Assembly (NCBI GenBank): GCA_963829055.1
Contig: CAWHHI010000017.1
Location: forward strand, 196,959 to 260,958
DNA from: an uncultured Gemmatimonadaceae bacterium
GTDB taxonomy: Bacteria > Gemmatimonadota > Gemmatimonadetes > Gemmatimonadales > Gemmatimonadaceae
Length of the DNA: 64,000 nt
Direction of reading: 5' to 3'
The first letter of the stretch is position 1. Each line of letters begins with the position of its first letter. This document shows, piece by piece, positions 1-64,000 of this stretch. Position numbers and translations under genes: made by a program. The notes beneath the pieces are model-generated. The model had not been told where the DNA came from. It saw only the letters and a list, made by a program, of their open reading frames with translations, and did no database searches.

Positions 1-110
1 TGCACTATGAGGTTCCACCGCCGACGCAGCGTATCGCGCCACGTACCTGACGCAAGCAGCGTCGGCCAGCGAGCCGCGGATGGGCCCGCGGATGAGCGCA
101 CGGACGTGCG

Positions 111-1094
111 TTAGGCACCACCGAGGACGGTCGACAGCGTCGACGCGCTCACGTTCCCGCCACACAGCACCACCGCGCTTTCCTGGTTCGCCAGTTGCGG
201 CCGCCCGGCCGTGAACTTGCGCCACGCGGCTACGGCGACGCCGGCTGACCCCTCGATCACGAGGTGGTCCGCGAGCATGACGTCGCGCATTGCCGCCGCG
301 ATCTCCGCTTCGCTCACGAGCACCAGCTCGTCGATGAGATCGCGACACAGTGGAAACGTGACGGCGCCGGGCTCGATGTTCCCGGCAGTGCCATCCGACA
401 GCGTCGGCTCGTCGGGCACCTCGATGATCCGGCCCGCGCGCACCGATTCGTACATCGCCGCCGCCTGCTCAGGCCAGCATCCAATGACCGAGATGTCGGG
501 GCGCACCGCGTCCAGATAGGACGCGATACCCGAGATGAGTCCACCGCCGCCGACGGCGACAAACACCGCGGCGACCTCGGGTCGCTGCGCGATCATCTCG
601 ACGGCGACGGTGCCCTGCCCCGCGAGCACGTCCACGTCGTTGTAGGGCGAGATGTAGACCCGCGCACGACGCTCGGCGAGCGCACGGGCCTCGAGCTCCG
701 CGGCCATCGGGTCCCCGTCGGACACGATCACCTCGAGGCCGGCTTTCGTTAGGCGATCGACTTTGTACCGGGAGGCAGCCGACGAGACGACGACCGTCCC
801 GCGCCCGCCGGTCAGCCGCAACGCCTCGGCCACCGCGAGCCCGTGGTTTCCGGTGGACGACGTGACCACGCCTGTCTCGCGCTGCTCCGGTGACAGAAGA
901 AGAACCTTGTTGAGCGCGCCACGGATCTTGAACGACCCGGTGCGCTGCAGGTTCTCGCACTTGAAGTACACGTGAGGCGCGAGCATCGGCGCGGGCCGCA
1001 GCGGCGTCTCGAGCGCGAATGGCGCGAGCCGCACACTCGCCGCGACGACCGCCGCGGCCTCGGAGGCGTAGAAGCATTCTGGGGAAGTCGTCAT
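111..1094 (-). CDS. PLP-dependent threonine/serine dehydratase
   Basis: FKCENLQRTGSFKIRGA (PLP lysine motif), SSTGNHG, VGGGGLISG; 327 aa with no regulatory domain. Confidence 0.9.
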   Translation of the reverse strand: MTTSPECFYASEAAAVVAASVRLAPFALETPLRPAPMLAPHVYFKCENLQRTGSFKIRGALNKVLLLSPEQRETGVVTSSTGNHGLAVAEALRLTGGRGTVVVSSAASRYKVDRLTKAGLEVIVSDGDPMAAELEARALAERRARVYISPYNDVDVLAGQGTVAVEMIAQRPEVAAVFVAVGGGGLISGIASYLDAVRPDISVIGCWPEQAAAMYESVRAGRIIEVPDEPTLSDGTAGNIEPGAVTFPLCRDLIDELVLVSEAEIAAAMRDVMLADHLVIEGSAGVAVAAWRKFTAGRPQLANQESAVVLCGGNVSASTLSTVLGGA

Positions 1095-1225
1095 GGGGGA
1101 AGAATACTGCCGCGACCATCAGCCGACACGGCGTACGCTCGCGCCGGCTTCGACGGGACGACGCCATGTCGTATCATTCGACGAGAGCGTCCGAGCAACG
1201 AGACACCTCAGTCCAACCGACCACG

Positions 1226-2167
1226 ATGCCCAGCTGGCAGGCGCGCGTCTTCAACACCGGCGTGACCGCGCTCATCCGGCGACGCGATTGGGGCGACGTG
1301 CCCACCGTCGCGAGACGGGCGCGGCTCGCACTCGGGGCGCCGGGGCCATACGGGTGGATCGCGCGTCAAGGGCTGGAGTGGCGGCCGGTCGAAACGAGCG
1401 GGGTTCGTGGTGAATGGCTGCTGCCCGGCAAACGGGAAGCGCCGCGAGGCGGGACGATCCTCTACATCCACGGCGGCGGCTTCGTTGCCTGCTCGGCCGC
1501 CAGCCATCGTCCGATCACGAGCTCGCTCGTTAGGCGCACGTCATCGACCCTGTTCAGCGCCAACTATCGACTGGCACCCGAGTCGCCGTTCCCCGCGGCG
1601 CTCGACGACGTGATCGCCACCTACGAATGGCTGGTGGAGACCGCCCCTGGATCACCGATCGCGATCGCGGGCGACTCGGCGGGCGGCGGACTGGTGCTAT
1701 CACTCGCGATTCACGCGCGCGACGCCGGGTTGCCGGCACCGGCGTGCCTCGTGGGATTCTCGCCGTGGACGGATCTCGCCGGCACGGGCGCGTCGCTCCA
1801 CGCGAACGACGGCCGAGATCCCATGTTCCGTCCCGAGAACATCCCGCAGTTCGCGTCCGTCTACCTCAATGGGACGAGGGCGGATGATCCGCGCGCGTCT
1901 CCGGTGTACGCGCCGCTGCACGGTCTGCCGCCGATGCTGCTGCAGGCTGGGTCGACGGAGTTGCTGCTCGACGACGCACGCCGAGTTCACGACCGCGTGC
2001 GTGCCACCGGCGGCTCAAGTCAGCTGTCGATCTACGACGCCGTCCATCACGGCTGGCAGATGACCACGCCCTGGGTCCCGGAGGCACGCGCGGCGTTAGG
2101 CGAGGCGGCTCGCTTCATCCGAATGCATCTCGATAGGAACGCGGCCGAGGTCAACACCGGTCGGTGA
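1226..2167 (+). CDS. HSL-family alpha/beta hydrolase (esterase/lipase)
   Basis: HGGG oxyanion motif, YRLAPE, GDSAGG nucleophile, C-terminal HGW; start set at ATG 1226 (1166 also possible). Confidence 0.88.
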   Translation: MPSWQARVFNTGVTALIRRRDWGDVPTVARRARLALGAPGPYGWIARQGLEWRPVETSGVRGEWLLPGKREAPRGGTILYIHGGGFVACSAASHRPITSSLVRRTSSTLFSANYRLAPESPFPAALDDVIATYEWLVETAPGSPIAIAGDSAGGGLVLSLAIHARDAGLPAPACLVGFSPWTDLAGTGASLHANDGRDPMFRPENIPQFASVYLNGTRADDPRASPVYAPLHGLPPMLLQAGSTELLLDDARRVHDRVRATGGSSQLSIYDAVHHGWQMTTPWVPEARAALGEAARFIRMHLDRNAAEVNTGR

Positions 2168-4181: not shown

Positions 4182-5621
4182 ATGACGACTGGCTCGCCGT
4201 CCCCGCTCGATCTCGATCACGCCACCATGCAGCGGCTCGGTCGCCAGGTCGCCGATACCGTTGCTGAGCATCTCGCGTCATTTCGCGAGCAACGAGTGCT
4301 CACCAATGGACTGCCTCCAAAAACGCGGCAGCGCCTCAGTGTCGCGCCGTCGGAGGACCCCGCCTCCTTCGACGACCTGCTCCGCGAGCTACGTGACGAC
4401 ATCTTTCCGTACTCCGCGCGCGAGCCTCACCCGGGCTTCATGGCGTACGTACCGGGCTGCCCGACCTTCCCCGCGGTCCTCGGCGACTGGCTCGCGACCG
4501 GGTACAACTTCTTCGCCGGCGTGTGGCCTGTGGCCGAGGGGCCTAACGCGGTGGAGCTTGCCGTGTTGGAGTGGTTCCGGCAGTGGACGGGAATGCCGGC
4601 GGGGACCGGCGGTCTGCTGACGAATGGCGGGTCGGGCGCGACGCTCACCGCTATCATCGCCGCGCGCCACGCCGCGGTCGGCGACGATGCGAGTCGTCTC
4701 CCACGCCTCGCACTCTACGCGTCCGACCAGGCGCACTCGGCCGCCCTGCGAGCGGCGTGGATCGCGGGCGTCCCGCGATCGCAGGTCCGGGTGCTGGAGA
4801 CCGGCTCGGACTATCGAGTGCGTCCCGACGACGTTCGGCGCGCGATAGCCGCCGATCGCGCAGCGGGCCTGATTCCGCTCGCCGTCGTCGTGAGTGCGGG
4901 CACCACGAACACGGGCGCCGTCGATCCGCTCGACGAGATCGCCGACCTGTGCGCGGCGGAGAACACGTGGCTCCACGCCGATGCAGCGTACGGCGGCTTC
5001 GCGGTGCTCACGGAACGCGGGGCGCGCATGCTCGCGGGGCTCGGTCGGTGCGACTCGGTCGCGCTGGACCCACACAAGTGGTTGTTCGTGCCGTTCGAGT
5101 GTGGCTCGCTGCTCGTTCGCGAGCCGGAGCGACTGCGCGCGGCGTTTCAGGTGCTGCCGGATTACCTCCGCGACGTCGCGGCTGGCCAGGACGGTGTGAA
5201 CTTCGCCGACTACGGCGAGCAGCTCACGCGCCAGTCGCGCGCTCTCAAGGTGTGGATCGGCGTCAGGTACTTCGGCCTCGCGGCGATCCGCGGCGAGATC
5301 GATCGCGCGATGGACCTCGCCGTCTACGCCGAGGAGCTCGTGCGGGCGGAGCCTTTGCTCGAGGTACGGTCGTCGGCGCAGCTGGGCGTTCTCTGCTTCC
5401 GCGTGCATCCGGACGGTGTCGATGACGAAGCGGCGCTCGACGCGCTCAACGAGCGCGTGAACGCCGCGATCGGCGCAGACGGGCGGTACCTCATCTCCTC
5501 CACCCGTCTGCACGGCTCCTTCACGCTGCGGATGTGCATCCTCGGTTTTCGGACTACAAAGGCGGACGTCGAGGGGCTGATGCGGACGGTCGTCGAATGC
5601 GCCGCACGCGTCCGCGCCTAA
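4182..5621 (+). CDS. Group II PLP-dependent decarboxylase (aromatic amino acid decarboxylase-like)
   Basis: SDQAHS, AGTTNTGAVDPL, WLHADAAYGG, DSVALDPHKWL. Confidence 0.9.
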   Translation: MTTGSPSPLDLDHATMQRLGRQVADTVAEHLASFREQRVLTNGLPPKTRQRLSVAPSEDPASFDDLLRELRDDIFPYSAREPHPGFMAYVPGCPTFPAVLGDWLATGYNFFAGVWPVAEGPNAVELAVLEWFRQWTGMPAGTGGLLTNGGSGATLTAIIAARHAAVGDDASRLPRLALYASDQAHSAALRAAWIAGVPRSQVRVLETGSDYRVRPDDVRRAIAADRAAGLIPLAVVVSAGTTNTGAVDPLDEIADLCAAENTWLHADAAYGGFAVLTERGARMLAGLGRCDSVALDPHKWLFVPFECGSLLVREPERLRAAFQVLPDYLRDVAAGQDGVNFADYGEQLTRQSRALKVWIGVRYFGLAAIRGEIDRAMDLAVYAEELVRAEPLLEVRSSAQLGVLCFRVHPDGVDDEAALDALNERVNAAIGADGRYLISSTRLHGSFTLRMCILGFRTTKADVEGLMRTVVECAARVRA

Positions 5622-5639
5622 CGCCTCAGCGCCAACAGC

Positions 5640-5921: not shown

Positions 5922-6089
5922 GATTCGTTAGGCAGGACGGCGGATGCAGCGAGGGTGAGAGCGGATAGCGCCGCGATGATAGGGGATGCAAGCCCGGGTG
6001 TGTCTGGCATCTCGACGTACACCCTCGGTCAGCAGTACCGAGGGGTCAGTCGTCGGTCATCAGTTTTCAGTCGGAGTCTGTCAGTCGGT

Positions 6090-6231: not shown

Positions 6232-6340
6232 CCAAGCCGGCGGATACGGGGCCTGATGCCTGACACCTGCTGCTGAGCAGTCGCTGACGCACTTGGTACT
6301 GGCCAGGCCGCCGCCGAATGGCGTAGCGGTTCCAGACCGC

Positions 6341-7744
6341 CTAACGCCGGCCGTGCTCGACACGAACCGTCAACCACGTCACGACCGCGCCCAGAGCACA
6401 GAGGGCCGCACAGATCCACATGGCTCGCGCGAACCCCTGCGTCAGTCGGAGCCCGGACAGGCGCTCGAGCCCACCCATCCCCGCCGCCGCCGGCAACGCC
6501 GCCGCGGACAGCAGCCCCGCCAACCGCGACGCGGCGTTGTTCACGCCTGACGCGACGCCCGCATCGCCCTCCGGCGCCGCGGCGAGTACCGCCGCCGTGA
6601 GCGGCGCCACGAGCGCCGAGAGGCCAAGGCCGAACACGATGGCCGCTGGCAGCACGCCGCTCACGTAGCTCACGCCCGGGGCCACGCGAGAGAACAGCAG
6701 CATCCCCGCACCAGCGACCAGCGCGCCCGCCGCCATCGGCACGCGCGCGCCGGTCCGATGCGCCACGCGCCCCGCCAGCGGCGATAGCGTCAGCATGAGC
6801 ACGTTCACCGGCAGTAACGACGCCCCACTCTGGAGCGCCGAGTAGCCGAGGTTTCCCTGCAGTTGCAGCACGAGCAGCAGGATCACACCGCTCAGCGCCG
6901 CGTAGATGAGCACCGTCGCGATGTTGGCGCCGCTGAACGCTCGCGAATGGAACAGCGACGGTGGCAAGAGCGGCGACACCGTGCGATGCTCGACGATCGC
7001 GAACACGACGAGCAGCACCGTCCCCGCCGCGAGCAGTCCGAGAATGATCGGCTGCGTGAATCCGACGCGCGGGCCGTCAATGAGCCCGGCGGTCAGCGCG
7101 CCGAGTCCGGTGATGATCAGCGCCGCGCCGGCGTAGTCGATCGACTGCTCTTTCCCGCGCGCGTCGCCGCGACTCGTGTCCACGCCGCCTAACGCCAACC
7201 AGGCCGCCACGAGCGCCACCGGCGCGATGCACGCGAACACCCATCGCCACGACGCCGCATCCACCAGCGACCCGCCAATCAACGGCCCGAGTGCCGTCGA
7301 TACGGCCGACCAGCCAGCCCATCGACCGATCGCGGTGCTGCGCTCCTCCTCACTGAACGACGCTTCGAGCATGGCGAGGCTGTTAGGCACCAGCATCGCG
7401 CCGGCCGATCCCTGCACGAAGCGCAGCGCCAGCAACGACAGCGAGCTTGGCGCGAGCGAGCACCCTACGGTCGCAACGGCAAACGCCACTGCTCCAACGA
7501 CGAACAGCTTCCGACGCCCGTACCGGTCACCGAGCGCACCGCCGAGCAGGGTGAGGGCGCCAAGCGCGAGGAGATACGCGTTGATCACCCACTGGACGCC
7601 CTCGAGTCCGAGGCCGAGGTCGCGCGCGATGGCCGGCAACGCGACGTTGACCACTGTCCCTTCGAGAAATACCGCTCCGGACCCGACGATCGACGCAGCG
7701 AGTGTGCGCCGACCGCCCGAAGACCCGAGCGCGAGCGCACTCAC
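6341..7744 (-). CDS. MFS transporter, DHA2-like (14 TM)
   Basis: TVVNVALPAI, GGALGDRYGRRK (motif A), LGPLIGG, WRWVF. Confidence 0.9.
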   Translation of the reverse strand: MSALALGSSGGRRTLAASIVGSGAVFLEGTVVNVALPAIARDLGLGLEGVQWVINAYLLALGALTLLGGALGDRYGRRKLFVVGAVAFAVATVGCSLAPSSLSLLALRFVQGSAGAMLVPNSLAMLEASFSEEERSTAIGRWAGWSAVSTALGPLIGGSLVDAASWRWVFACIAPVALVAAWLALGGVDTSRGDARGKEQSIDYAGAALIITGLGALTAGLIDGPRVGFTQPIILGLLAAGTVLLVVFAIVEHRTVSPLLPPSLFHSRAFSGANIATVLIYAALSGVILLLVLQLQGNLGYSALQSGASLLPVNVLMLTLSPLAGRVAHRTGARVPMAAGALVAGAGMLLFSRVAPGVSYVSGVLPAAIVFGLGLSALVAPLTAAVLAAAPEGDAGVASGVNNAASRLAGLLSAAALPAAAGMGGLERLSGLRLTQGFARAMWICAALCALGAVVTWLTVRVEHGRR

Positions 7745-7762
7745 AGCGCACTCACAGTGCGC

Positions 7763-8074
7763 TCACGCTCGCTTTCGCTGCTCCAGCCCCTTCACGTAAG
7801 GCGGATCGACGAGCTCCAGCAGCTCCGGGTGCAGGCCAAGCCACTTGCGCACGAACGGACACGTCGGAACCACCCGAAATCCACGCTCTCGCGCGTAGTC
7901 GAACGCCGCTTTCGCCAGCGCCTCGGCCACACCGTGGCCGCGCTCGTCCGGCGGGACATACGTGTGCTGAACGTCGATGAGCTTGGGGCCGACTCGCAGA
8001 TACGTCAGCTCCGCTTCCTCACCGTCCACTGAAACGCTGAAGCGGCCAGCCTTCTCGTCGTGTTCGACTTTCAT
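7763..8074 (-). CDS. Small GNAT-like protein (YjdJ / Acetyltransf_CG family)
   Basis: HTYVP..RGHGVA and VVPTCPFV motifs. Confidence 0.88.
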   Translation of the reverse strand: MKVEHDEKAGRFSVSVDGEEAELTYLRVGPKLIDVQHTYVPPDERGHGVAEALAKAAFDYARERGFRVVPTCPFVRKWLGLHPELLELVDPPYVKGLEQRKRA

Positions 8075-9126
8075 TCATCTCTCCGGGGCATCGGGCAATC
8101 GACGACATACATCGGGGACTCGCGTCCCTCGGCTGTCATTAACAATGCCGCGCCGCGACCAAACCACGTGATACCCTCACCGCCCCATTCTCCGGTGGTC
8201 ATCGTGTTGCACACCGCGGGAGGAATGCCGTTGATGACGCGACCGGTGAGCGGATCCGTGACGAACACAAACACCTGCGCGTACGTGCGGACCGCGAGGT
8301 AGCGAGCGTCGGGTGAGAGCGCCGCATCGGTGATTATGCGGAGTGGAGCCGAGCCGGGAACGATCGGCAGGCTGTCCACGATCTGCGCGATCGCCGGCAC
8401 GCCGGGGCGCCATGCCTCCGCCGGGAGGCGGAACACCAGCGCCGGCCGCATCCGGCCGGCCGCGTCCGTCAATCGGCGCTTGGTGATGAGATAGATGTCG
8501 GCGTTAGGCGCGACGTACATCGCCTCGACGTCGTGCGGCCCATCGGCGTATGAATAGATGAGCGACTGCGCGGTCACGTCGCCGGTGAACCCGGCCTGTG
8601 CTGCCTTCGGCTCGGCGACGCGGTAGATGACCCGCGACGGTCGCTTCGCGTCGTTGTCGCCGGTGTCGCCGATGAAGACACATTCGCCCGAAGCAGGGCG
8701 GCTCGTGTCTGCAACCGCTGCCGCTGTCGGTGGCGCGCATGGACCCACGGACGCCGACTCCCAGTCCACGTTGGACGCGCCGCCGACGCGCCACACGCCG
8801 CGGTCCCTGCCGGTCGTGTCCAATGCGAACAACCACGGATCGTTGCCGGAGTCGTTGATCGTGAACCACACGCCCGGCTGGGTGTGGCTCAGTGCGGCAG
8901 CGGAATTCTCCACCAACTCCGGCCGGGCCTCGAGCGGAACAGCGGCGAAGCTGGCCGGCGGGACGCCCATCGAATCGGTCTTGATGTAAGGGGCGCGCGC
9001 CGCTCGACGCGTGACCGGCCCATCAGGCCCGCTACACGCCGATGCAATGAACACCACAGCGGCGGCGAGAGCCACCACAGCGGTGGCCCGACGCCCGGCT
9101 CGGACGACGACGTGCGACCGGCTCAC
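8071..9126 (-). CDS. Conserved hypothetical lipoprotein (possible beta-propeller)
   Basis: Lipobox ASAC; NDSG, DWE, IGDTGDN, HDVEA, GEGITW motifs; 4-bp overlaps with both neighbours. Confidence 0.7.
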   Translation of the reverse strand: MSRSHVVVRAGRRATAVVALAAAVVFIASACSGPDGPVTRRAARAPYIKTDSMGVPPASFAAVPLEARPELVENSAAALSHTQPGVWFTINDSGNDPWLFALDTTGRDRGVWRVGGASNVDWESASVGPCAPPTAAAVADTSRPASGECVFIGDTGDNDAKRPSRVIYRVAEPKAAQAGFTGDVTAQSLIYSYADGPHDVEAMYVAPNADIYLITKRRLTDAAGRMRPALVFRLPAEAWRPGVPAIAQIVDSLPIVPGSAPLRIITDAALSPDARYLAVRTYAQVFVFVTDPLTGRVINGIPPAVCNTMTTGEWGGEGITWFGRGAALLMTAEGRESPMYVVDCPMPRRDE

Positions 9127-9428
9127 TCCGGCCCGAGCCGGCGACGATCCTCGTTAGGCTCGGACGCTGTGATGGCGGACTGGTCGGGAAAGACCTCGAG
9201 CTTGGGGTCGAGCCCGCTCATGGACGCTGGCCCGCGAAGGGGGGCAGGACGCTGGCCGCGAACGGCGCGATACGCGAGGATCCCGGCCCCGAGCACGCCG
9301 CCAGCGACGGCCAGGCTCGCGAGCAAAGCGAGGCCTACCAGCAGCAGCGCCGCCCCCGCCCCAAGGACGACGAGCGTGGCGAGCAGTGCCACCAGCCGGT
9401 TCTTTGTGCTGAACGTGTAGACTGCCAT
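9123..9428 (-). CDS. Small membrane protein
   Basis: Two TM helices; stop overlaps the start of the next gene. Confidence 0.65.
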   Translation of the reverse strand: MAVYTFSTKNRLVALLATLVVLGAGAALLLVGLALLASLAVAGGVLGAGILAYRAVRGQRPAPLRGPASMSGLDPKLEVFPDQSAITASEPNEDRRRLGPE

Positions 9429-12527: not shown

Positions 12528-12721
12528 GCGCGAGAGGTGGAATGATGCGGCCCGCTTGCGCCCTGGTGGTATGTGAAAGGCTTGTACCCCGTGCTATCTA
12601 TCTACCGGACTATCTGCGTAGCGACCGGAGCGGGCACCGTCACCGCCATGGTCGAAACAGATCACATCACTCGTCGCGGCCGCCCTGCGGCGACGATCAC
12701 CGGACTGACGGAGGACATCGC

Positions 12722-47131: not shown

Positions 47132-47245
47132 CGCCCACCCTGTCGGCAGCGAAACGGCCGGAGCGAGCGCCACTGCCACGTACGCTGGTCAGTGGCGCTC
47201 ACATCTCGAGGTCACGTCCTGGGCGAGAAAGGTGTGCGGTGAGGA

Positions 47246-47842: not shown

Positions 47843-47850
47843 TGCGATGT

Positions 47851-47977: not shown

Positions 47978-47991
47978 GGCGGGTCGCACCC

Positions 47992-50675: not shown

Positions 50676-50688
50676 GGTGGTCGTGCCC

Positions 50689-51024: not shown

Positions 51025-51030
51025 GGGCGT

Positions 51031-51104
51031 GCTTCCGTCGATAGACGATGGGAAGCTCTGCCCGCGCGCCCGTCTTGTCAAGCCCCGTCGATAGCCGATG
51101 GGAG
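51031..51104 (-). promoter_or_regulatory. padR promoter with two operator-like repeats flanking TTGACA
   Basis: ccgtcgatagacgatggga and ccgtcgatagccgatggga on either side of minus-strand TTGACA (51076-51081). Confidence 0.7.
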
Positions 51105-51687
51105 CGGGTCGCGTGACGCATGGCCGCGGCTCCAGCGTCGAGTCGGCCAGCGGCCGAGGATTGGGCTCGCTCGCGCGGGGGCCGCATTGCGCCGCAATCT
51201 CGCGTGGGTGCCGAGATGGGTTCGGTGTGCCCAGCCGTCGGGGTGAGCAGCCGCAGGCCAGGTCAAGACTTAGGAGGCGGGAATCTCACGTGCGTGCGGA
51301 ACGCTTGGTCGACCGCTGCGGGCGCCGTGCAGTCCGAGCACCATGCGGAACATGGCATCCTTCGACTTGCTCAGGTTGTGATCGGTGCACGCGGGTACTG
51401 TGATTAGGCTCGCGCGATGGCTGGCGCGATCAGTCACGTCTTTCAGGCTCCGGGGAACACGCAAAGTGGAGGCACGTGCTCGCGGCTTGTCGAGGAAGCG
51501 CTGCACAGATACCACTCAGGTACTCGCACGTTTTCCTCTAAGTACCGGCGCATCGATGGCGGGCCTCGCAGAACCCGAATCTTTCCGGAGGCCTGCTCGG
51601 CGACAGAGCTTGTGCCCACCTAACGCCATTTACGCGACTTGAGCAAATCCGCAACGCGGCTTCACCCAACTAATCCCGCGCGTCCTC

Positions 51688-51791
51688 GCCGCCTAACCGG
51701 TTGAAATGCGGCGGAGCGATGAGGCACAAGGTAACCGCTACCGAGTCAATCTACTCCGCGACCGCGATCGATACCCGCCGTGTTAGGCGGC
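51688..51791. mobile_element. Degenerate attC-like hairpin
   Basis: Perfect 10-bp terminal inverted repeat GCCGCCTAAC / GTTAGGCGGC; inner gcggag/ctccgc pairing; 104 bp. Confidence 0.5.
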
Positions 51792-51920
51792 GACACGCGC
51801 CGTCTAATCCCACCGGCAGCCGAGCGCCGTTGGAATGACCATCGGGGCACCGGGCATCACCGCCCTATCGGTACGCAACCCACGCCCACGCCCCAGCCAG
51901 ATCCCACCCGCAGTCACTCC

Positions 51921-51974
51921 TTCTGTTGACAGCTAGAGGAACACCGGTCACATTCTCCTAGACAGCTACAGAAG
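51921..51974 (+). promoter_or_regulatory. Sigma70-like promoter overlapped by two repeat boxes
   Basis: TTGACA (51926) - 17 bp - CACATT (51949); repeats ttctgttgacagctagagg and ttctcctagacagctacaga. Confidence 0.6.
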
Positions 51975-52022
51975 CCCGCGACAGCGCAACCCGCCCGTCG
52001 CGACCACCAGCCGGATCGCGCC

Positions 52023-54755: not shown

Positions 54756-54794
54756 CCGGACGGAAAAGCGCCTCGGCGCTATCTTTCCGGGGCC

Positions 54795-55490
54795 ATGACT
54801 GACCGACGATTCAATGACGATGAAGTCGCCGCGATCTTCGCAAAGGCGACTGACGTGCAGCAAACCGGCCAACGGCAGCTCTCGTCGGGCGAGGGCCTGA
54901 CGCTCACCGAGCTCCAGGAGATCGGCCGTGAAGTGGGGATCGCCCCCGAGCTCATCGCGCAGGCGGCGACGTCGATCGACAAGGTCGGCACCCCGACTGC
55001 CCGAAAATTCCTCGGCCTCCCCATCGGTGTCGGCCGCACGGTCGAACTCGACCGAAAGCTGTCCGACGTCGAGTGGGAGCAGCTCGTGGTGGATCTGCGC
55101 GAGACGTTCGACGCGCGTGGAGTCGTTAGGCAGGAAGGGTCGTTCCGGCAGTGGACGAACGGCAACCTGCAGGCGCTCGTCGAGCCGACCGCGACCGGGC
55201 ATCGGATCCGTCTGCGCACCATGAACGCCGGCCTGCGCGCCTTCATGCTCGGCGGGCTCGGGATGATCGGAATGGCCGGGGCGACGTCGATAGCCGTGGC
55301 GGTAGGCGGAACGAGCAGCCTGGGGTCGATCGTGGAGCTCGGCGTCATTGGCGCCGGAATGTTCTCGTACGGCGCGCTTCGACTTCCGGGGTGGGCCCGG
55401 CTCCGTCGTCAGCAGATGGAGCAGCTCGCCGCGCGGCTCACCGGCAAACCGGCGTTGCCGCCCGCGCCGATTCCAGACGACGAGCGTTAG
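54795..55490 (+). CDS. Hypothetical membrane protein
   Basis: RRF.DDEV..IF..A...GLTL.EL.EIGREVGI N-terminus; two C-terminal TMs. Confidence 0.75.
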   Translation: MTDRRFNDDEVAAIFAKATDVQQTGQRQLSSGEGLTLTELQEIGREVGIAPELIAQAATSIDKVGTPTARKFLGLPIGVGRTVELDRKLSDVEWEQLVVDLRETFDARGVVRQEGSFRQWTNGNLQALVEPTATGHRIRLRTMNAGLRAFMLGGLGMIGMAGATSIAVAVGGTSSLGSIVELGVIGAGMFSYGALRLPGWARLRRQQMEQLAARLTGKPALPPAPIPDDER

Positions 55491-55533
55491 GCATCGTCCG
55501 CGCAGCAAGCCGCGGCGCACGCCGGGCGTGCGA

Positions 55534-56130: not shown

Positions 56131-56582
56131 GCAGTCGTTAGGCGGCTGGCACGTCTTACGTGAATGAGGGCGACCAGCGCCGCGACGGCGAAGAGATTGA
56201 TACCCGCGCCGATACCCGCGCCGGGGTCGGGCAACCCGATGCGGAAGGCCGCGGTCGCACCAACGATGGCATCCGGCCCACGCCCTGTCGTATAGCTGCC
56301 GACGAGCGCGATCCCGCTCGTCATGCGATACGCGGCACCAGGCATCCAGATCCACAGCACCTGTGCGGCCTGTACCGCGATCGATAGGCCCAGAGCACCG
56401 GTCAACCGACGCAACAATCGCCATCCCGCGACCGCGCTCACCGCGCAGAATAGCACCGCAAACGCGGTGTGCCACACGGGACGAGCGGAGTCGAGCGCCT
56501 GCGCGATGAACACGACCGCGCCGACCGCACCGCCGATGATCTCCGAGGCCGAGAGCAGCAGGCGCCAACCGCCTGGACTCAT
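56127..56582 (-). CDS. Hypothetical membrane protein
   Basis: Several hydrophobic helices; coupled to the GNAT start (GTGA). Confidence 0.6.
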   Translation of the reverse strand: MSPGGWRLLLSASEIIGGAVGAVVFIAQALDSARPVWHTAFAVLFCAVSAVAGWRLLRRLTGALGLSIAVQAAQVLWIWMPGAAYRMTSGIALVGSYTTGRGPDAIVGATAAFRIGLPDPGAGIGAGINLFAVAALVALIHVRRASRLTTA

Positions 56583-56751
56583 CACTCGGCGACGCCAGAC
56601 GCTCACAGGGACGGGGCCACGAGAGTGCGACGCCTGTTGCGGTCGGCTGGAAAGTCCCCCAGTCTCTTTCACCTGTGATTGTAGCCGAAGCTCCTCTCAG
56701 GGGACGAGCTCATTCCCGTCTCCGATCATCCAAACAAGGGCAGGGTACCCC

Positions 56752-57234
56752 ATGATGCTCACACCACACACGCGCGCACTCTCCAGGGCTCTCGCCCTGT
56801 CCCTCGCGCTCACCCTCACGGCCTGCGGGCCCAAGGATGCCGACATCAAGACCGGCGTCGATCAGGCCATCGCCGGAGCGCAGGGCGTAACGGCAGAGGT
56901 GTCAAAGGGCGTCGTCACAATCTCCGGGCAATTCGCCGACGAGGCAACGAAGGCATCGACCGAAGCGGCGGTGAAGGCGGTGAAGGGCGTCAAGTCCGTG
57001 GTCGACAACGCTACCGTCACGCCCCCGGCGCCCGTCGTCATCTCGCCCGATGATTCGCTCAGGACCAACGTCACCGCTGCGCTGAAGGACTTCCCCACCC
57101 TCTCGGCCGACGTGAAGGACGGCGTTGTCACGCTCACCGGCGAGATCAAGAAATCCGAGCTCCCGAAGGCGATGCAGGCGGTCTCCGCGCTCAAGCCGAA
57201 GAAGATCGTGAACAAAGCCACGGTGAAGAAGTAA
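56752..57234 (+). CDS. Dual BON-domain lipoprotein
   Basis: Lipobox LTAC; V.KGVVTISG...VKGVKSVVDN and VKDGVVTLTG. Confidence 0.88.
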   Translation: MMLTPHTRALSRALALSLALTLTACGPKDADIKTGVDQAIAGAQGVTAEVSKGVVTISGQFADEATKASTEAAVKAVKGVKSVVDNATVTPPAPVVISPDDSLRTNVTAALKDFPTLSADVKDGVVTLTGEIKKSELPKAMQAVSALKPKKIVNKATVKK

Positions 57235-57267
57235 TCCGCCCTCTATCTCAACGACGGTCAAATCTCC

Positions 57268-57690
57268 ATGCCGACCCTTCAGGACAAGTACGCGGATCTC
57301 ATCAGCGCCGCGAAAGCTTCGGGTGCTTCGAACCTCGCCGTGCGCGCACAGGACAACGTGCTCTACATCGACGGCGTCGTGCCGACGGGCGAAGCGAAAG
57401 ACAAGCTGTGGAACATCTACGACAAGATCGACCCTGACTTTCGGAGCGGGGATCTCGTTCTCAACCTCGACGTCTCACCGGCCGCGCCGTCCACTCGACT
57501 CAAGGTCACGACGCAGAGCTCGAACCTGAACATCAGGAAGGGCCCGGGCACAGACCAGCCGATCATCGGCAAGGCCGCCCACAATTCGGAAGTGACGCTC
57601 CTCAGCAAGTACAACGACGAGTGGGCGCTGGTCCGCTCCGCGAACAATGAGGAAGGCTACTGCTCGTTGAAGTACCTCACGGCGATCTGA
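57268..57690 (+). CDS. Protein with BON-like N-terminus and C-terminal SH3b domain
   Basis: LQDKY..LI...QDNVLYIDG...KLW..Y..IDP; LNIRKGPGT...IIG...W..V.....EGY. Confidence 0.82.
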   Translation: MPTLQDKYADLISAAKASGASNLAVRAQDNVLYIDGVVPTGEAKDKLWNIYDKIDPDFRSGDLVLNLDVSPAAPSTRLKVTTQSSNLNIRKGPGTDQPIIGKAAHNSEVTLLSKYNDEWALVRSANNEEGYCSLKYLTAI

Positions 57691-57691
57691 G

Positions 57692-57782
57692 CCTAACGAC
57701 TGCGAGGCGCTTGTTGCTGGGTGTGGGTGCTTGTGGCTGGGTGCACTCAGCAACACCCAGCCACCAGCGCCTCGCAGTTAGG
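57692..57782. terminator. Long hairpin between convergent genes, bounded by CCTAAC / GTTAGG
   Basis: cctaacgactgcgaggcgct...gctgggtgt / acacccagc...agcgcctcgcagttagg. Confidence 0.55.
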
Positions 57783-60123
57783 GCACAATTTGCGGCTTGC
57801 CGATTTGATATTCCTTCGGCGGCTCCGCCCCCTGGAGGTTCTTCACGAAATAATCCCAGCGCCGGCGCATGACGTAGTTGTTGTCCACGCCGTATCCGTG
57901 ACGCGCGTGCGGCAGCATGATCAGATCGAAATCCTTCCCCGCCTTTACGAGCGCGTCGACCACCATCTGGGTGTTCTCCACCGGCACGTTGTCATCCATC
58001 TGACCGTGCACCAGCATGAGCTTCCCCTTCAGATTCTTCGCGTACGTCTCGTTCGCCTCGGCCGCATAGTTGTCGGTCGCGCCGTTCTTCGCGAGGAGAC
58101 CCTGATAGCGCTCGCCCCAGTCGTCCTCGTAGTTGCGGTTGTCGTGATTGCCCGACTCCGCGATGCCGACGTCGAAGAAGTCCGTGAACTTGAACATCGC
58201 CGACGCCGTCGCGAAGCCACCGCCCGAGTGCCCCCAGATCCCGACCTTCTCGCCATCGATGAACGCATAACGCTTGGCGAGCTCCTTGATCCCCGCGACC
58301 TGATCGGGAATCGTGTTGTCGCCCATGTGGCCGTAGTACGTGTCCGAGAACGTCTTCGACCGGCCCGGCGTTCCCATGCCGTCGATCGCGACGACGACGA
58401 AGCCGAGCTCCGCCAGCGCCTGGTGATCGCCGCGCGCCGGTGAGAAGCTGCGACTGCCGACGCTGCCACTCTGCGGACCGGGATAGATGTCGTCGATGAT
58501 CGGGTACTTCTTGGACGAGTCCATCTTCGACGGCGTGAACATGAGACCGTAAATGTCGGTCTTCCCATCGCGCCCCTTCATCTTGACCGACGTCGGCGGC
58601 CGCCAGCCCGTCGCGACGAGGCGCGAGATGTCCGCCTTCTCGAGCTGCTGGATGACCTTTCCGCTCGCGTCGCGCAGCACGGTGATTGGCGGCGTATCGG
58701 GCGTGGAGTATGAATCCACGAAGTACTTCCCGTCCGGCGACATCGAGACGTTGTGATTCGCATTCTCCGGCGTCACTAACGTCTGTCCTTTGCCGTCGAA
58801 TCCGATCTTGTACAAATGCTGGTAGTAGGGGTCGCGGCCCGCCTCCTTGCCCTGCCCCATGAAGTAGATGACGCGCGCCTTCTCGTCCACGCGGACGACG
58901 TCTTCGACGTTGCCCTCACCGGTCGTGATGCGATTCTTGAGCTTCCCTGTCGTCAGGTCGTACAGGTAGAGGTGAATCCAGTCGTCACGCTCGGACCACC
59001 AGATCAACTCGTTCGACGCCGGCAACACGCGCCACAGATTCTCGGGCAACGACGCATCACCCACCTGCGTGGCGGCGTGTTCCTCGAACAGCGTCTTCAC
59101 TTCACCCGTCTTCGCATCGGCAACGCGGAACCACGCCGTCTTGTGGTCGCGCGAGCTCGAGATGAACGCCAGGTGAGACCCATCCGGGTACCACTGCGCG
59201 TCGCAGATCTCGCCGCCGCAGTTGACGTGATCCGACACGGTGGACCGATGGGCGTCCGGCGGCATGTCGAGCCGGAGCACGTGTGCACCGCCGTTAGGCA
59301 GCAGATGAATGATGACGCGGCTGATGCGGAAGATCACGCTGTCGCCGGGCATCGGATACTTCCACGCGTCCAGCTTCGGGCCGCCGACGTTGGTCGAGAC
59401 GAGATACATCTCGCGCACGCCGCGTCCGTCGTGCTGGAACGTCGCGATCTGCTTCGAGTCCGGTGACCACGTGAGTACCGGACGGTCGCTATGCGTCCAG
59501 CCGGCGTTGTCGGTCGCGTAGCCGAAATCCTTGATGCCGTCCGTCGTCAGCTGGGTCTCGCGCCCGCTCGCCAGCTCGCGCGCCCACAGATTGTTGTCCT
59601 TGATGTAGGCCGCCAGCTTCCCGTCCGGCGACACGGTCGAGTTCTCCGGCGCGCGTCCGCTTGCCGCGGTCGAGTCACCACCGGCACACGTGTACTGCTG
59701 GAGATCGCAGGTCCAGCGACGATTCTGCAGGTTGACCGTGATCGACCTGCTGTCCTTGGAGAGGTCGAAGGACTGAAACGGCAGGCGATTACCCTCGACA
59801 CGCCCTCCGGACGCCGACGCCAGCGCGGCCGCTAGCCGAGTGCGGTCGAACACCTCGGTGCGCGTGCGCCGAACGGGGTCGACGAGGAAGAACGCGCCGC
59901 CGTTCGCGATCGTCGTGCGGTACCAGAACCGGCCGTCGTCGAGCCAGCGCGGAGGCCCGCTGAGTCCGCTCACCAACGACACCGTCGAGGCGCCAAGGAA
60001 CCGCTCGGCCCGTCCATAGTCTTCGGCGGTGAGTTGACGCGGCGGTTGCACAGCGGCCTGCCCCGACAACGACGAGGCAAAGGGCGCCGCGACGATCAAC
60101 AGGGCGGCAGAGGAAAGGCGCAT
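57778..60123 (-). CDS. S9B (DPP-IV-like) dipeptidyl peptidase, secreted
   Basis: Signal peptide; beta-propeller SPDGK repeats; YPGPQ, WGHSGGG (Ser), DDNV (Asp), HGY (His). Confidence 0.92.
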   Translation of the reverse strand: MRLSSAALLIVAAPFASSLSGQAAVQPPRQLTAEDYGRAERFLGASTVSLVSGLSGPPRWLDDGRFWYRTTIANGGAFFLVDPVRRTRTEVFDRTRLAAALASASGGRVEGNRLPFQSFDLSKDSRSITVNLQNRRWTCDLQQYTCAGGDSTAASGRAPENSTVSPDGKLAAYIKDNNLWARELASGRETQLTTDGIKDFGYATDNAGWTHSDRPVLTWSPDSKQIATFQHDGRGVREMYLVSTNVGGPKLDAWKYPMPGDSVIFRISRVIIHLLPNGGAHVLRLDMPPDAHRSTVSDHVNCGGEICDAQWYPDGSHLAFISSSRDHKTAWFRVADAKTGEVKTLFEEHAATQVGDASLPENLWRVLPASNELIWWSERDDWIHLYLYDLTTGKLKNRITTGEGNVEDVVRVDEKARVIYFMGQGKEAGRDPYYQHLYKIGFDGKGQTLVTPENANHNVSMSPDGKYFVDSYSTPDTPPITVLRDASGKVIQQLEKADISRLVATGWRPPTSVKMKGRDGKTDIYGLMFTPSKMDSSKKYPIIDDIYPGPQSGSVGSRSFSPARGDHQALAELGFVVVAIDGMGTPGRSKTFSDTYYGHMGDNTIPDQVAGIKELAKRYAFIDGEKVGIWGHSGGGFATASAMFKFTDFFDVGIAESGNHDNRNYEDDWGERYQGLLAKNGATDNYAAEANETYAKNLKGKLMLVHGQMDDNVPVENTQMVVDALVKAGKDFDLIMLPHARHGYGVDNNYVMRRRWDYFVKNLQGAEPPKEYQIGKPQIVP

Positions 60124-60348: not shown

Positions 60349-61986
60349 GTGTCGACGATGATAGCAGCAGAAAAGCGATCGAACGACCAGGCGTTTCAGG
60401 AACGCGTCACACGCCTCGAGGAGCGCATCGCCGATGCGCGGTCACATCCGGACGCGCACTCGGCCGCGATGTACGCCGGCATCCGGACGCTCGTCGCGGA
60501 GCTGATCAGACGTCGTCGCCAAGTCGAGCAGACGTGCGAAACGCTCACCCGAGTGCTCGAGGCGACGAGCGATGGCTTCGTCGCCCTCGACGCCGAATGG
60601 CGGTGCACCTACGTGAACGCGCACGCCGGCCGGATGTTGGGCCGCGAGCCGTCATCGCTGATCGGAAAGAACATCTGGGCCGAGTTCCCCGAGAGCGTCG
60701 GCCAACCTTTCCGGCTCGAGTATGAGCGCGCCTTCGCCGAAGGGAAACCGCGTCAGATCGAGGCGTACTCTCCGAACTTCGATCGCTGGTTCGAGAATCG
60801 GATTTTCCCGTACGCGGGCGGGCTCGCGATCTTCATGCAGGACGTCACCGAGCGGCGCACCGCCGAAGATCGGCTGCGCGAGAGCGAACAGCGCTATCGG
60901 TCACTGTTCGATCGCCACCCCGACGCGGTCTATTCGTTCGATGCCGATGGTCGCTTCGTGAGCGCGAATCCGGCGTGCGAGAGGCTGTCCGGCTACACGC
61001 CTGATGAGCTCATCGGAACGTCGTTCCTCCCGTTGATCGTTCCTGAACACCGCACGCGTGCGCTCGAGCAATTCCGTTCAGCGCTCGCCGGACATGCCAC
61101 GAGCTACGACGAGGCGATCCTCCACAAGAGTGGCCACCGCGTAGAGATCTCCATCACGAAGCTTCCTATCGTCGTGGACGGCGCCGTCGTCGGCGTCTTC
61201 GGCATTGCGAAGGATCTGACGGAGCGGCGGGAGCTCGAGGCGCGATTGCATCAGGCCGAAAAGATGGAGGCGGTTGGACGCGTCGCCGCAGGTGTCGCGC
61301 ACGACTTCAACAACCTGCTCACGATCATCCAGAGCTGCGCGGCGTTTCTCGCGCGCGATCTTCCGGCGTCCAACCCGCTGCACGCGGATGTGGAGTCGAT
61401 TCAGAGCGCGTCGCGTCGCGCCGCCGAGCTGACCCAGCAGCTGCTCGCGTTCGGCCGCAAGCAAGTGATGATGCCCCAGCGGATGGACGTCAACGAGTAC
61501 GTGCTCAGCTTCGTAGCGACGTTCCGGCGTCTGGTCGGCGAGACCGTCGCGGTAGAAACGGCGCTCGCGCCAAACTCCTGGTCCGTTTTCGCCGACCCCG
61601 GCCAGATCGAGCGCGTGCTCATGAACCTCGGCCTCAATGCGCGTGATGCCATGCCCAATGGTGGCACGCTGCGGATCCGCACCGAGAACGTCGTGCTGGA
61701 TCAGGAAACGGCGCACGGACTCGTGCCCAGGGCGTACGTCGAGCTCACGATCGAGGACACCGGGACGGGCATCGACCCTCACGTCCTGTCGCGTATCTTC
61801 GAGCCGTTCGTCACGACCAAGCCCGCGGGCGTCGGCACCGGGCTCGGCCTCGCAACGGTGCATGGCATCATCGAGCAGACTGGCGGCGTCATTCGCGTGA
61901 GCACCGCGCCCGGAAAGGGCAGCCGTTTCTCGGTGTTCCTGCCGCGGGCGGATGGCGATGATCTGACGGAGGCCGCGGTCGCCTAA
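60349..61986 (+). CDS. Cytoplasmic PAS-PAS histidine kinase
   Basis: Two PAS domains (YVN..A..MLG; ANPACERLSGY), AHDFNNLL, NARDAM, GTGLGL; no REC domain. Confidence 0.9.
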   Translation: MSTMIAAEKRSNDQAFQERVTRLEERIADARSHPDAHSAAMYAGIRTLVAELIRRRRQVEQTCETLTRVLEATSDGFVALDAEWRCTYVNAHAGRMLGREPSSLIGKNIWAEFPESVGQPFRLEYERAFAEGKPRQIEAYSPNFDRWFENRIFPYAGGLAIFMQDVTERRTAEDRLRESEQRYRSLFDRHPDAVYSFDADGRFVSANPACERLSGYTPDELIGTSFLPLIVPEHRTRALEQFRSALAGHATSYDEAILHKSGHRVEISITKLPIVVDGAVVGVFGIAKDLTERRELEARLHQAEKMEAVGRVAAGVAHDFNNLLTIIQSCAAFLARDLPASNPLHADVESIQSASRRAAELTQQLLAFGRKQVMMPQRMDVNEYVLSFVATFRRLVGETVAVETALAPNSWSVFADPGQIERVLMNLGLNARDAMPNGGTLRIRTENVVLDQETAHGLVPRAYVELTIEDTGTGIDPHVLSRIFEPFVTTKPAGVGTGLGLATVHGIIEQTGGVIRVSTAPGKGSRFSVFLPRADGDDLTEAAVA

Positions 61987-62009
61987 CGCTGCAACCGATG
62001 AACGCGCCG

Positions 62010-62972
62010 TCAGCGCTTCGCGACGGCGCTATCCCGCGGGACCGCGGATCGCAGGAATCCGATGAGTAGCGGGTTCACGACGTCGGTCCGTTCCATGTGT
62101 GGCAGATGCGCCGCCCGGTCAATGGGATGGTACTGCGCCTGCGGGATCGCCTTCCTGACGCCACTCGCGTGGTCGATCGTCACCGTGCTGTCCTGCATGC
62201 CCCACACGAGCAGCGTCGGCGTGCCTAACGCCCCGACACGTGCGTAGACCGAATCCAGGCTCCGGCCATTGTTCTCGCGGAGCGTGGACAGGAGCGCGCG
62301 GCCGAACCCTCGATACTGCATCTGCACGCGGTAGCGCGCTGGCCAGTCCGGCCACTTCGCCGGCTCCACGAAGTCCGACAGCTGACCGTCGGCCATCCCG
62401 GGGACGGCAAATGCCTGCCAGAGCACGGGCCCGAGGAGCGGGACGCGGAACATGGCAGGCGGAACGCTCGCGGTTCCGGCCGCCGGATCCACGAGCGTGA
62501 GCGAGCGCACGCGATCGGGATGCTGTGCGACGAACGTTGCGGACACCGGCCCACCCATCGACAGCCCGACGATGTCCACCCGGTCACGCCAGCCGAGCGA
62601 ATCGAGCAATTGCAGCAGTTGGCGGTCATACACGTCGGACGTGTACGCGATGTCGGGCCGGTCCGAGTAGCCGCGGCCGTACTCGTCGTATCGAGCGACG
62701 CGGAACCCGGCGCCGGCGAGCGCCGTGACGGTCGAGTCCCAAATGTACGACGGTACGGAGAAGCCGTGGACGAGCATCACTCGCTGCCCGCTGTCCGGCC
62801 CCGCGACATCGTAGTGCGTGATACCGTCGCCTAACGTGATGAACCTCCCCGGAACGCCCTGGCGAGCGGCGGCGCCGAGGTCGGCACGCTCGGGGTTGCG
62901 GACGGCGTAGGTTGCCGCGATCGCGGCGGCCGCGAGGGCGATCGGAAGGACGATGAGCTTGCGGAGTCGCAT
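62010..62972 (-). CDS. Alpha/beta fold hydrolase with N-terminal anchor
   Basis: LVHGFS, YGRGYS, GLSMGG, WG..D, AHLPH. Confidence 0.9.
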   Translation of the reverse strand: MRLRKLIVLPIALAAAAIAATYAVRNPERADLGAAARQGVPGRFITLGDGITHYDVAGPDSGQRVMLVHGFSVPSYIWDSTVTALAGAGFRVARYDEYGRGYSDRPDIAYTSDVYDRQLLQLLDSLGWRDRVDIVGLSMGGPVSATFVAQHPDRVRSLTLVDPAAGTASVPPAMFRVPLLGPVLWQAFAVPGMADGQLSDFVEPAKWPDWPARYRVQMQYRGFGRALLSTLRENNGRSLDSVYARVGALGTPTLLVWGMQDSTVTIDHASGVRKAIPQAQYHPIDRAAHLPHMERTDVVNPLLIGFLRSAVPRDSAVAKR

Positions 62973-63092
62973 GCGCTGGAGAGAGAAGATTTTCGGCCGG
63001 GGTTGCTGATGAACTTGCAGTCAGTAGCGGTCCAGCCACCAGCATCCGTTCCCCAGTCCCCGTCCCCAGTCCCGTCCCCGTACTTTGTTCGC

Positions 63093-64000
63093 GTGACTCC
63101 ACTGAACGCTCTCTGGGGCCTCGATCTCGGCGGCACGAAGATCGAAGGCGCCATCGTCGACGCCAGTCAGCCCGACCGGTCAGCGTGGCGTACGCGCTTG
63201 CCGACCGAGAGCGACCGGGGCTACGAGCACATCGTAGCGACGGTCCGCGCTGTCGTCGAGCGGCTCGAGGCGGCATCGGGCCTCGGACGCCCGCCGGTGA
63301 TTGGCGTTGGAACTCCCGGTGCGATCGAGCCGGACACGGGCACGCTCAAGAACTCGAACACGGTCTGCCTCAACGGGAAGTCGCTCGCCGCGGACCTGTC
63401 GCGGGCGTTAGGCGTGGAGGCCCGCCTCGCGAACGACGCCAATTGCTTCGCGCTCGCCGAAGCGACGCTCGGCGCCGCCCGCGGACGGGCGGTTGTGCTC
63501 GGACTGATCATCGGCACGGGCGTCGGCAGCGGCATCGTCGTGGACGGCCGGGTGCTTCACGGCCGCCACGGAATCGCCGGTGAGTGGGGCCACAATCCGA
63601 TCCGCGGCGAGACGGTACCGTGCTACTGCGGACGTCTGGGCTGCGTCGAGACGGTGATCTCGGGCCCGGCACTCGAGCGATTCTACGAGGCGCGGACTGA
63701 CCAGCGCGTGGCGCTGCCGGACATCGTGCACCGCGCTGGCACTGGCGATGGGGACGCAGCTGCCACGTTAGGCCGCCTGCGCGCAAAATTCGGCGAGGCG
63801 ATCGCCGCGGTGATCAACATCCTCGACCCGGACGCGATCGTGATCGGTGGCGGTGTCGGCAACATCACGGACCTGTACGACGACCGCACGCGCGAGGAAA
63901 TCCGCCGCCACCTGTTCAACCCGACGCTGCGCACCGAGCTTCTGCGCCCGACGCTCGGCGACAGCGCGGGCGTGTTCGGTGCAGCGCTGCTCGCTCGCTG
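63093..64000 (+). CDS. ROK-family sugar kinase (stop codon cut by the window edge; absent from the ORF track)
   Basis: Translated by hand from GTG 63093: GLDLGGTK, ANDANCFALAE, GTGVGSG, GEWGH, CYCG..GCVE, GDSAGVFGAA. Confidence 0.9.
   Translation, partial: MTPLNALWGLDLGGTKIEGAIVDASQPDRSAWRTRLPTESDRGYEHIVATVRAVVERLEAASGLGRPPVIGVGTPGAIEPDTGTLKNSNTVCLNGKSLAADLSRALGVEARLANDANCFALAEATLGAARGRAVVLGLIIGTGVGSGIVVDGRVLHGRHGIAGEWGHNPIRGETVPCYCGRLGCVETVISGPALERFYEARTDQRVALPDIVHRAGTGDGDAAATLGRLRAKFGEAIAAVINILDPDAIVIGGGVGNITDLYDDRTREEIRRHLFNPTLRTELLRPTLGDSAGVFGAALLAR

Follow-up and report, generated by a model that had tools for sequence, protein, structure and literature searches.

Why should one asymmetric octamer, CGTTAGGC, recur dozens of times within 64 kb of bacterial DNA, mostly inside genes, and what might read it? 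The question was raised by positions 196,959 to 260,958 of contig CAWHHI010000017.1 from an uncultured Gemmatimonadaceae bacterium (referred to as the window, meaning this whole stretch of 64,000 nucleotides), in which an initial annotation had noticed the word. We conclude that the word is real and occurs family-wide, that it is maintained at the DNA level and that it is apparently undescribed; no description of CGTTAGGC in Gemmatimonadota was found in the literature, although supplementary motif surveys could still list it. At somewhat less than even confidence, we favor the reading that CGTTAGGC may be an uptake-sequence-like self tag spread by molecular drive.

Abundance of the word in the genome and the window

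The source genome of the window (G000; 7.78 Mb in 20 contigs, 86% complete, with 6,141 genes called at 67% coverage) holds 5,004 copies of CGTTAGGC, 2547:2457 by strand. Its placement in the Gemmatimonadaceae is borne out by the relatives of its SecA protein. They are present on every contig at 0.48-0.80 per kb (0.64/kb overall), and the word is the top 8-mer of the genome, 49x over an order-2 and 19x over an order-3 Markov expectation. Inside genes lie 3,005 copies, while 343 overlap stop codons, 2 are at gene edges and 1,654 are in uncalled DNA. Eight runs of a codon-aware null yielded 60-136 in-gene copies, so that the real number is at least 22-fold higher. Nearly half of the TTA codons (1,236/2,520, 49%) and 187 of the 776 TAA stops fall within CGTTAGGC, and 3,001 of 12,277 protein-neutral (synonymous) opportunities for the word are occupied. 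The enrichment thus withstood two of the checks proposed at the outset, a codon-aware null and genome-wide 8-mer counts, and is not confined to one contig or assembly. The view that selection acts on the DNA word itself was likewise supported, as selection or drive, by the codon-aware nulls, the occupancy of synonymous opportunities and the RpoB/RpoC sites described below.

Placement varies with gene context. Low-GC3 genes (those with low GC content at third codon positions) are sparse in the word, with 0.31/kb versus 0.65-0.73/kb elsewhere, and tuf, recA, groEL, dnaK and ftsZ carry zero copies. In spacers, the density is highest between convergent genes (1.09/kb) and only 0.41/kb between divergent ones, while controls are flat. 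Copies peak just downstream of stop codons, but with 318 sense and 296 antisense copies, an RNA-level role there was rejected. Three gaps of 31-50 kb lack CGTTAGGC (C6:5440-55037, C11:1-46789 and C6:591808-623330); they carry ordinary metabolic genes and are probably foreign or misassembled (chimeric) DNA. Among 19 three-site clusters in G000, examined as possible autoregulatory sites, no DNA-binding gene was recognizable from N-termini.

In the window, CGTTAGGC occurs exactly 51 times, compared with a mean of 1.10 and a maximum of 5 in dinucleotide shuffles, with 35 copies on the plus and 16 on the minus strand. The initial annotation had counted about 51 copies with this split, and all positions it quoted match. 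It had also placed most copies inside coding sequences (CDSs), and 33 of the 51 are in called CDSs; 11 lie outside called genes, and the others coincide with stops (6) or a gene edge (1). The five stop codons it listed (111, 5619, 12525, 55488 and 61984) are stops of called genes, and the copy at 6339 supplies a sixth. As for the near-variants it mentioned, 16 additional tolerated ones (YGTTAKGB) were found. The copies are as follows.

109..63773, both strands: the whole set, 51 perfect CGTTAGGC copies and 16 variants YGTTAKGB, in genes and spacers
109..116, plus: copy giving the TAA stop of gene 111-1034 (minus)
747..2101, plus: copies at 747, 1528 and 2094, all in called CDSs
4541..4548, minus: copy in a CDS, Pro-Asn frame
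5616..5623, minus: copy giving the TAA stop of gene 4227-5621 (plus)
5926..5933, plus: copy outside called genes
6339..6346, minus: copy giving the TAG stop of gene 6341-7744 (minus)
7187..9159: CDS copies at 7187 (minus), 8502 (plus) and 9152 (plus); variant TGTTAGGC at 7381 (plus)
12522..12529, plus: copy giving the TAG stop of the gene ending at 12527 (plus)
14350..20455: copies at 14350 (minus), 15949 (plus), 16745 (minus), 17776 (plus), 18040 (plus), 20133 (plus) and 20448 (minus); variant CGTTAGGG at 14647 (plus)
21894..32216: copies at 21894, 23207, 26381, 29148 and 32209 (plus) and 26928 (minus), all in CDSs
Within 21894..32216: variants at 22533, 23403, 24978, 25068, 28412, 30577, 30713 and 31311
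33459..43277: copies at 33459, 34100, 34449, 36709, 38886, 39738, 41849 and 42179 (plus) and 35430, 37527 and 43270 (minus); variant at 40042
45058..55131: copies at 45058, 47970, 49750, 50848 and 55124 (plus) and 49262 (minus); variants at 50211, 51618, 51781 and 54496
55485..55492, plus: copy giving the TAG stop of the gene ending at 55490 (plus)
56136..59299: copies at 56136 (plus), 57691 (minus) and 59292 (plus); variant at 58265
61981..61988, minus: copy giving the TAA stop of the gene ending at 61986 (plus)
62223..63773: CDS copies at 62223 (minus), 62829 (minus), 63406 (plus) and 63766 (plus), Leu-Gly frame with TTA

Seventeen studies (20 runs) contain DNA near-identical to window positions 21000-30000, and all 30 bins across 21000-40999 had depth from the contigs of four runs. 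Metagenome depth together with near-identical DNA in independent studies indicates that this stretch is real DNA. No RNA dataset was among the listed holders of DNA near-identical to 21000-30000. Of 460 strain differences, 40 were examined and none fell within a perfect copy, a sample too small for a test of selection.

Two other features of the window were noted. Intergenic elements resembling repetitive extragenic palindromes or miniature inverted-repeat transposable elements, which start with TGTCATTCC or TGTCATCCC, lie at 33004-33036, 40456-40488, 20835-20864, 21069-21098 and 6088-6120; each start has about 600 genome copies, and the element is very deep in metagenome contigs. On the minus strand at 21108-32859, four consecutive large genes encode products of 1870, 725, 527 and 743 aa. 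The longest appears by eye to have a P-loop-like stretch, many helical repeats and a peptidoglycan-binding-like C-terminal part, and the row suggests a conflict or signaling system.

Origin, spacing and lineage distribution

The flanks of the copies show codon periodicity only, which indicates an eight-base word rather than a repeat element. In RpoB/RpoC alignments of 61 genomes, the word lies at invariant residues at which motif-poor genomes have CTC or CTG codons; a Pro-Leu-Gly site carries it in 19 genomes, for example, and an Ala-Leu-Gly site in 17. Only a few residue changes were seen. These alignments, together with the unshared flanks, rule out a longer repeat or an insertion as the source. 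Copies thus arise in place by synonymous substitution, and they turn over between congeners. At about 78-80% identity, congeners have 42 of 146 sites in common versus 170 of 952 for control words (a small sample), so density is kept while positions turn over.

Relative to a motif-masked model, CGTTAGGC is enriched 216x, CGTTAGGT 54x, TGTTAGGC 45x, CGTTAGGG 36x and CGTTATGC 16x, while the remaining changes at positions 2-7 reach 0.7-3x. Among the variants, C-to-T changes at positions 1 and 8 are the most frequent. CGTCAGGC was rejected as part of the signal because, although 2.9x enriched, it is not repelled from perfect sites. Such repulsion is marked among the copies themselves: in G000 pairs closer than 100 bp occur at 0.16-0.25 of the plateau density, which is nearly regained (about 0.9) at 300 bp. 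Perfect sites likewise repel the four strong variants but not control octamers, and direct and inverted pairs show the same exclusion. Synonymous opportunities are occupied in 4% of cases when a neighbor lies within 100 bp versus 33% when it lies at 600-2,000 bp, and no extra avoidance of long gaps between copies was seen. Such spacing suggests a bound complex with a reach of 100-300 bp that would be blind to orientation. In a 470-kb sample from G058, a strict-type genome, and the plasmid NZ_CP007129.1 of Gemmatirosa kalamazoonensis KBS708, pairs at 100-300 bp numbered 15 versus 32 expected. Pairs below 100 bp in this sample (13 versus 15 expected) include tandem or hairpin repeats and a duplicated stretch, and exclusion at this shortest range is shown for G000 only.

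How widely is the word distributed? Among the 246 Gemmatimonadaceae genomes counted (five unpublished ones were left out), 78 from 25 genera have 421-7,821 copies each; another 8 have 110-269, and the remaining 160 stay below 100. Density in relatives reaches about 1.3/kb, and the KBS708 plasmid carries 778 copies in 1.1 Mb versus 20 for the reversed control. Outside the family, G036, G038, G040 and G378 are above controls, and other classes are at background. The lineage specificity surmised from the window therefore holds within Gemmatimonadota, as judged by this survey of the family, the order and other classes. A FastTree phylogeny of 60 genomes (without G000) was built from RpoB, RpoC, NusG and four ribosomal proteins; on it, the distribution of 35 rich and 22 poor genomes requires at least 11 state changes, whether gain or loss, while shuffling gave a mean of 17.8. 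One ten-genus clade is rich throughout except for one intermediate genome, and g56 splits into rich and poor sisters. Between sister lineages of similar GC, densities differ by about 70-fold or more. Lineages also have dialects: CGTTAKGT stands at about 1-3% of the consensus in g47, g56, g62 and g77 versus 18-26% in g1, g9 and g55. Such differences in tolerance at similar GC point to a protein reader with alleles.

The survey turned up two arrangements of other kinds. In G273 (contig C1), most of the 59 copies belong to 7-bp tandem repeats arranged as facing pairs 40-130 bp apart, which is another type of element. At G377:C3:73297-73313 and G378:C227:2796-2812, an inverted CGTTATGT pair with a one-base spacer resembles an operator palindrome.

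What may read the word

The uptake-type reading starts from what was observed here: the abundance of the word, its synonymous origin in place, its spacing and turnover, its lack of polarity, its dialects and the presence of competence genes. In G000 the last comprise pilM/N/O, PilB/PilT-type ATPases, pilins, dprA, comEC, comFB and radC. According to this reading, a sequence-specific receptor, probably in the type IV pilus or the uptake pore, would bind double-stranded CGTTAGGC in either orientation, and word-bearing fragments would enter and recombine more often. Molecular drive would then spread word-creating point mutations to all places where the encoded protein permits them. One bound complex would block about 100-300 bp and a nearby second site would add little, hence the rarity of close pairs. 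Lineages whose receptor loses specificity would lose the word, and receptor alleles would differ in strictness at positions 1, 7 and 8.

The uptake signal sequences (USS) of Pasteurellaceae and the DNA uptake sequences (DUS) of Neisseriaceae provide the nearest comparison (PMC7811141; see also PMC2817400 and PMC1939737). USS and DUS are likewise short, non-palindromic and present about once per kb without replichore bias; they are also made by point mutation within genes, sparse in constrained and foreign-looking chromosomal DNA, and divided into lineage dialects. PMC7811141 gives a USS spacing of about 1,000 bp, evolution of USS by point mutation and a scarcity of USS/DUS in newly acquired DNA, and reports that in Haemophilus influenzae two USS within 100 bp bring no extra uptake. 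However, the word and the phylum differ here, flanking consensus and terminator pairs are lacking, close pairs are depleted rather than enriched, phages and mobile elements carry the word, and the same word has undergone at least 11 state changes. As the statistics are USS/DUS-like while the mobile-element, terminator-pair and flank features are unlike those of USS/DUS, and the uptake bias is an inferred one, CGTTAGGC is not filed as a member of that class.

Several observations weigh against an uptake tag. The competence machinery is equally present in motif-poor relatives, and neither comEC (5/5) nor HHH_3 (62/62) discriminates; the only HHH_3 hit in G000 is in an 81-aa frame. No receptor was found: among 60 of the 104 pilin matches, drawn from 10 genomes, all clusters with more than two members mix rich and poor genomes. 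In two tailed-phage lineages and in a 15-kb integrase element, the word reaches or exceeds the host level. Only 4 inverted pairs lie within 30 bp in G000, whereas 17% of USS lie within 30 bp of another according to PMC7811141. There is no flanking consensus, the same word recurs in separate families, and no Gemmatimonadota are known to be naturally transformable. Among other reader candidates, presence or absence of HU, UvrD-type helicases, RecC and Ku (28/32 vs 20/30) does not separate rich from poor genomes, and Pfam scans of 138 and 121 of the 6,141 G000 proteins yielded no reader candidate.

A close rival, tentative and to our minds somewhat less probable than an uptake tag, is an intracellular self tag: a cytoplasmic protein would bind the word in either orientation with a footprint of 100-300 bp and protect or organize any resident DNA, so that selection would act on chromosomes, plasmids and phages alike. 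It might shield DNA from a host nuclease or defense, load repair functions in lineages that lack AddAB/RecBCD, or structure the nucleoid. The main evidence for such a role is phage density. Phage contig G383 (portal, terminase and scaffold genes) carries 31 copies over 17.0 kb; the second lineage is represented by two related contigs, L531 with 15 in 7.1 kb and L512 with 12 in 7.8 kb. These copies (1.5-2.1 per kb) lie on both strands and come with host-type variants. The integrase element, in G058, has 13 copies, and the word-rich KBS708 plasmid and the low density in divergent spacers also fit. Furthermore, the AddAB-type nuclease domain PF12705 is found in 3 of 32 motif-rich versus 16 of 30 motif-poor genomes, and in 0 of 3 rich versus 2 of 2 poor g56 sisters. 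However, the protein scans gave no candidate here either, and the best link of the phages to a host is 44% portal identity to a Gemmatimonadaceae genome, the best match for G383 among 301 genomes of the order; the best GenBank phage reaches 40%. No copies occur in five loci that hold relatives of this portal (four in motif-poor genomes, one in an intermediate one). The phage densities exceed that of G000 but not significantly that of the richest host (p 0.05, 0.06 and 0.34), and the contigs came from searches favoring dense contigs. Scans of viral DNA for triples gave 3, 1, 0 and 0 hits. Pair scans gave 121 rows, with the DNA of 80 inspected, and a further 40; in most of these rows the matched pair was all there was. 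No dip was present at -100 to -25 of 366 confident starts. The AddAB-like locus adjoins WYL genes, and g55 versus g39 shows no contrast; with kin not independent and genomes incomplete, the AddAB association is a lead only. RecC was found in 0 of 5 genomes, and no gene replacing AddAB was seen at a fixed locus in 5 loci.

A modification-dependent mark, as proposed for HIP1, is an improbable alternative, in which a modifier would mark the word and repair or uptake would favor the marked allele. The abundance and coding placement do resemble those of HIP1 (PMC5861425), and the commonest variants are C-to-T changes. However, the SMRT methylome of the motif-rich G. kalamazoonensis KBS708 lacks the word, containing three m6A motifs only (RGATCY, ATGCAC and CCAGN7TCA; PMC3974934). 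A search of 5 motif-rich genomes (one closed) found no C5 methylase in any of them, with controls detected in 9 of 14; the control of a DndE search was silent. The opposite-strand deamination product CATTAGGC stands at 1.2x, and the word is not a palindrome. HIP1 (GCGATCGC, cyanobacteria) is likewise an octamer with thousands of copies in coding DNA (PMC5861425). Its sites are more conserved than control words, to be set beside the small congener sample above. However, it is palindromic, methylated and nearly phylum-wide, whereas CGTTAGGC is asymmetric, patchy and, as far as tested, unmethylated. HIP1 is itself now being reinterpreted as an uptake signal, according to PMC13756078.

The integron core GTTRRRY contained in the word, which the initial annotation had pointed out, proved to be more than a resemblance: the word is an actual attC end in Gemmatimonadales. 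CGTTAGGC equals the core with a preceding C, and its commonest shared variant equals R''. Where copies cluster in motif-poor relatives, they are attC ends within cassette arrays, and among 56 attC sites R' was CGTTAGGC in 44 and R'' was TGTTAGGC in 38. However, 47 of the 56 came from loci fetched because they hold the word, and only 3 of 9 attC sites adjoining intI genes end in CGTTAGGC. That the integrase produced the copies or targets them (as leftovers of cassette traffic, secondary sites or IntI-type binding sites) is very unlikely, and integrase as the direct cause is largely refuted, even though G000 has an integron whose IntI shows altered catalytic motifs. IntI does not track the word (30/40 motif-rich vs 22/31 motif-poor family genomes) and CGTTAGAC, a common attC end, is at 0.9x genome-wide, so the integrase is not the driver. 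Moreover, the rpoB/rpoC copies are synonymous substitutions and not insertions, inverted pairs at attC distance are depleted, and G000 has only four tyrosine-recombinase open reading frames. A loose genome-wide scan for attC hairpins gave 78 hits, many of them the same site on both strands or inside genes, and a stricter test of two integron regions gave 10 hits versus 5,004 genome copies. Unlike attC sites, the copies across the genome stand alone, show neither L boxes nor hairpins and occur independently of IntI. A tyrosine recombinase (IntI, XerC/D or another) was also rejected as the reader, with no association, no extra homologue and different dif arms.

Still less probable is a polar signal for break repair or chromosome segregation. 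Chi (read by RecBCD/AddAB) and the FtsK-orienting polar sequences (KOPS) are over-represented asymmetric 8-mers read by proteins, and CGTTAGGC is likewise a non-palindromic, over-represented word of eight letters. In the 4.5 Mb of G000 oriented by GGGNAGGG and GC skew, the leading strand holds 1,433 of 2,724 copies (52.6%, p 0.007), but this excess follows gene direction, with 56.5% in leading and 47.1% in lagging genes. There was no polarity in 18 samples of a closed chromosome. The possible 2:1 skew suspected in the window did not extend beyond it: 35:16 (p 0.011) is a local extreme that none of 110 tiled windows matched. Unlike Chi and KOPS, the word has neither polarity nor orientation dependence, as direct and inverted pairs are excluded equally, and the same genome has a separate, strongly polar GGGNAGGG. 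In closed G058, neither RecC nor, at E 1e-8, an AddAB-type hit was found. A Chi- or KOPS-like role is already contradicted by the lack of polarity. Least probable of all, and already refuted, is a neutral origin through codon use, mutation bias, repeats or assembly. Frames are used unevenly, and a very low background of TTAG-containing words inflates ratios, but the excess over codon-aware nulls, the unshared flanks, the absence of a spacing effect for control octamers and the contrasts between sisters of similar GC all speak against it. Of the functions first listed (uptake, recombination, methylation and nucleoid binding), uptake and intracellular binding remain, while Chi-type recombination and methylation are unsupported.

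A historical link to integrons is conceivable, as natural transformation feeds cassettes to chromosomal integrons in Vibrio according to PMC12614218. A reader might have evolved on the cassette core, either as an uptake receptor that first fished for cassette DNA in soil or as a domesticated Xer/IntI-type domain; drive would then have made the attC word a self tag that plasmids and phages must copy, in lineages mostly without AddAB. We regard this scenario as rather unlikely. If true, a site-specific recombination signal would have given rise to a self/non-self code that viruses mimic.

Further loci were recorded along the way. An intact integron integrase at G000:C20:208041-208958 (L005) scores just above the TIGR02249 cut-off; in its catalytic motifs the HxLR histidine and a conserved lysine are apparently replaced, unlike in 28 other aligned IntI, and attC sites lie nearby at about C20:119-208 kb. 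At G000:C4:1362-2860 (L006), an intI gene is cut after its N-terminal domain, with a junction to DNA of different character near the contig start. A dif-like site at C16:560818 of G000 lies where GC skew and GGGNAGGG polarity both switch; a xerC/D gene is about 20 kb away. AddAB-like helicase-nuclease genes are found near a WYL-like gene pair in several Gemmatimonadaceae (G000:C15:10393-25461; L502-L505) and are split into several frames in G000. Pnkp-Hen1 RNA repair genes occur at L016:1199-5217 (G000:C16). A virus contig of 44% GC (L287, IMGVR_UViG_3300023212_000464:1-4100) has, between short genes, 14 co-oriented copies of a longer intergenic repeat that contains the octamer, which is a phenomenon separate from the genome-wide word.

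Meaning for the Gemmatimonadaceae

Established cases of functional words of this size in such high iteration are confined to few groups, namely USS, DUS and HIP1. CGTTAGGC is another such word, found in an abundant soil phylum and carried by a cultured type strain. As the state changed repeatedly with the same sequence, rich and poor sisters (within g56; g47/g77 vs g40; g55 vs g39) allow the reader to be sought by gene content. They also let drive be tested against intracellular function, a question common to HIP1 and the uptake sequences. In practical terms, genetic tools for Gemmatimonadota may need the word, and it marks foreign or misassembled DNA in genome bins and may help to assign phages to their hosts.

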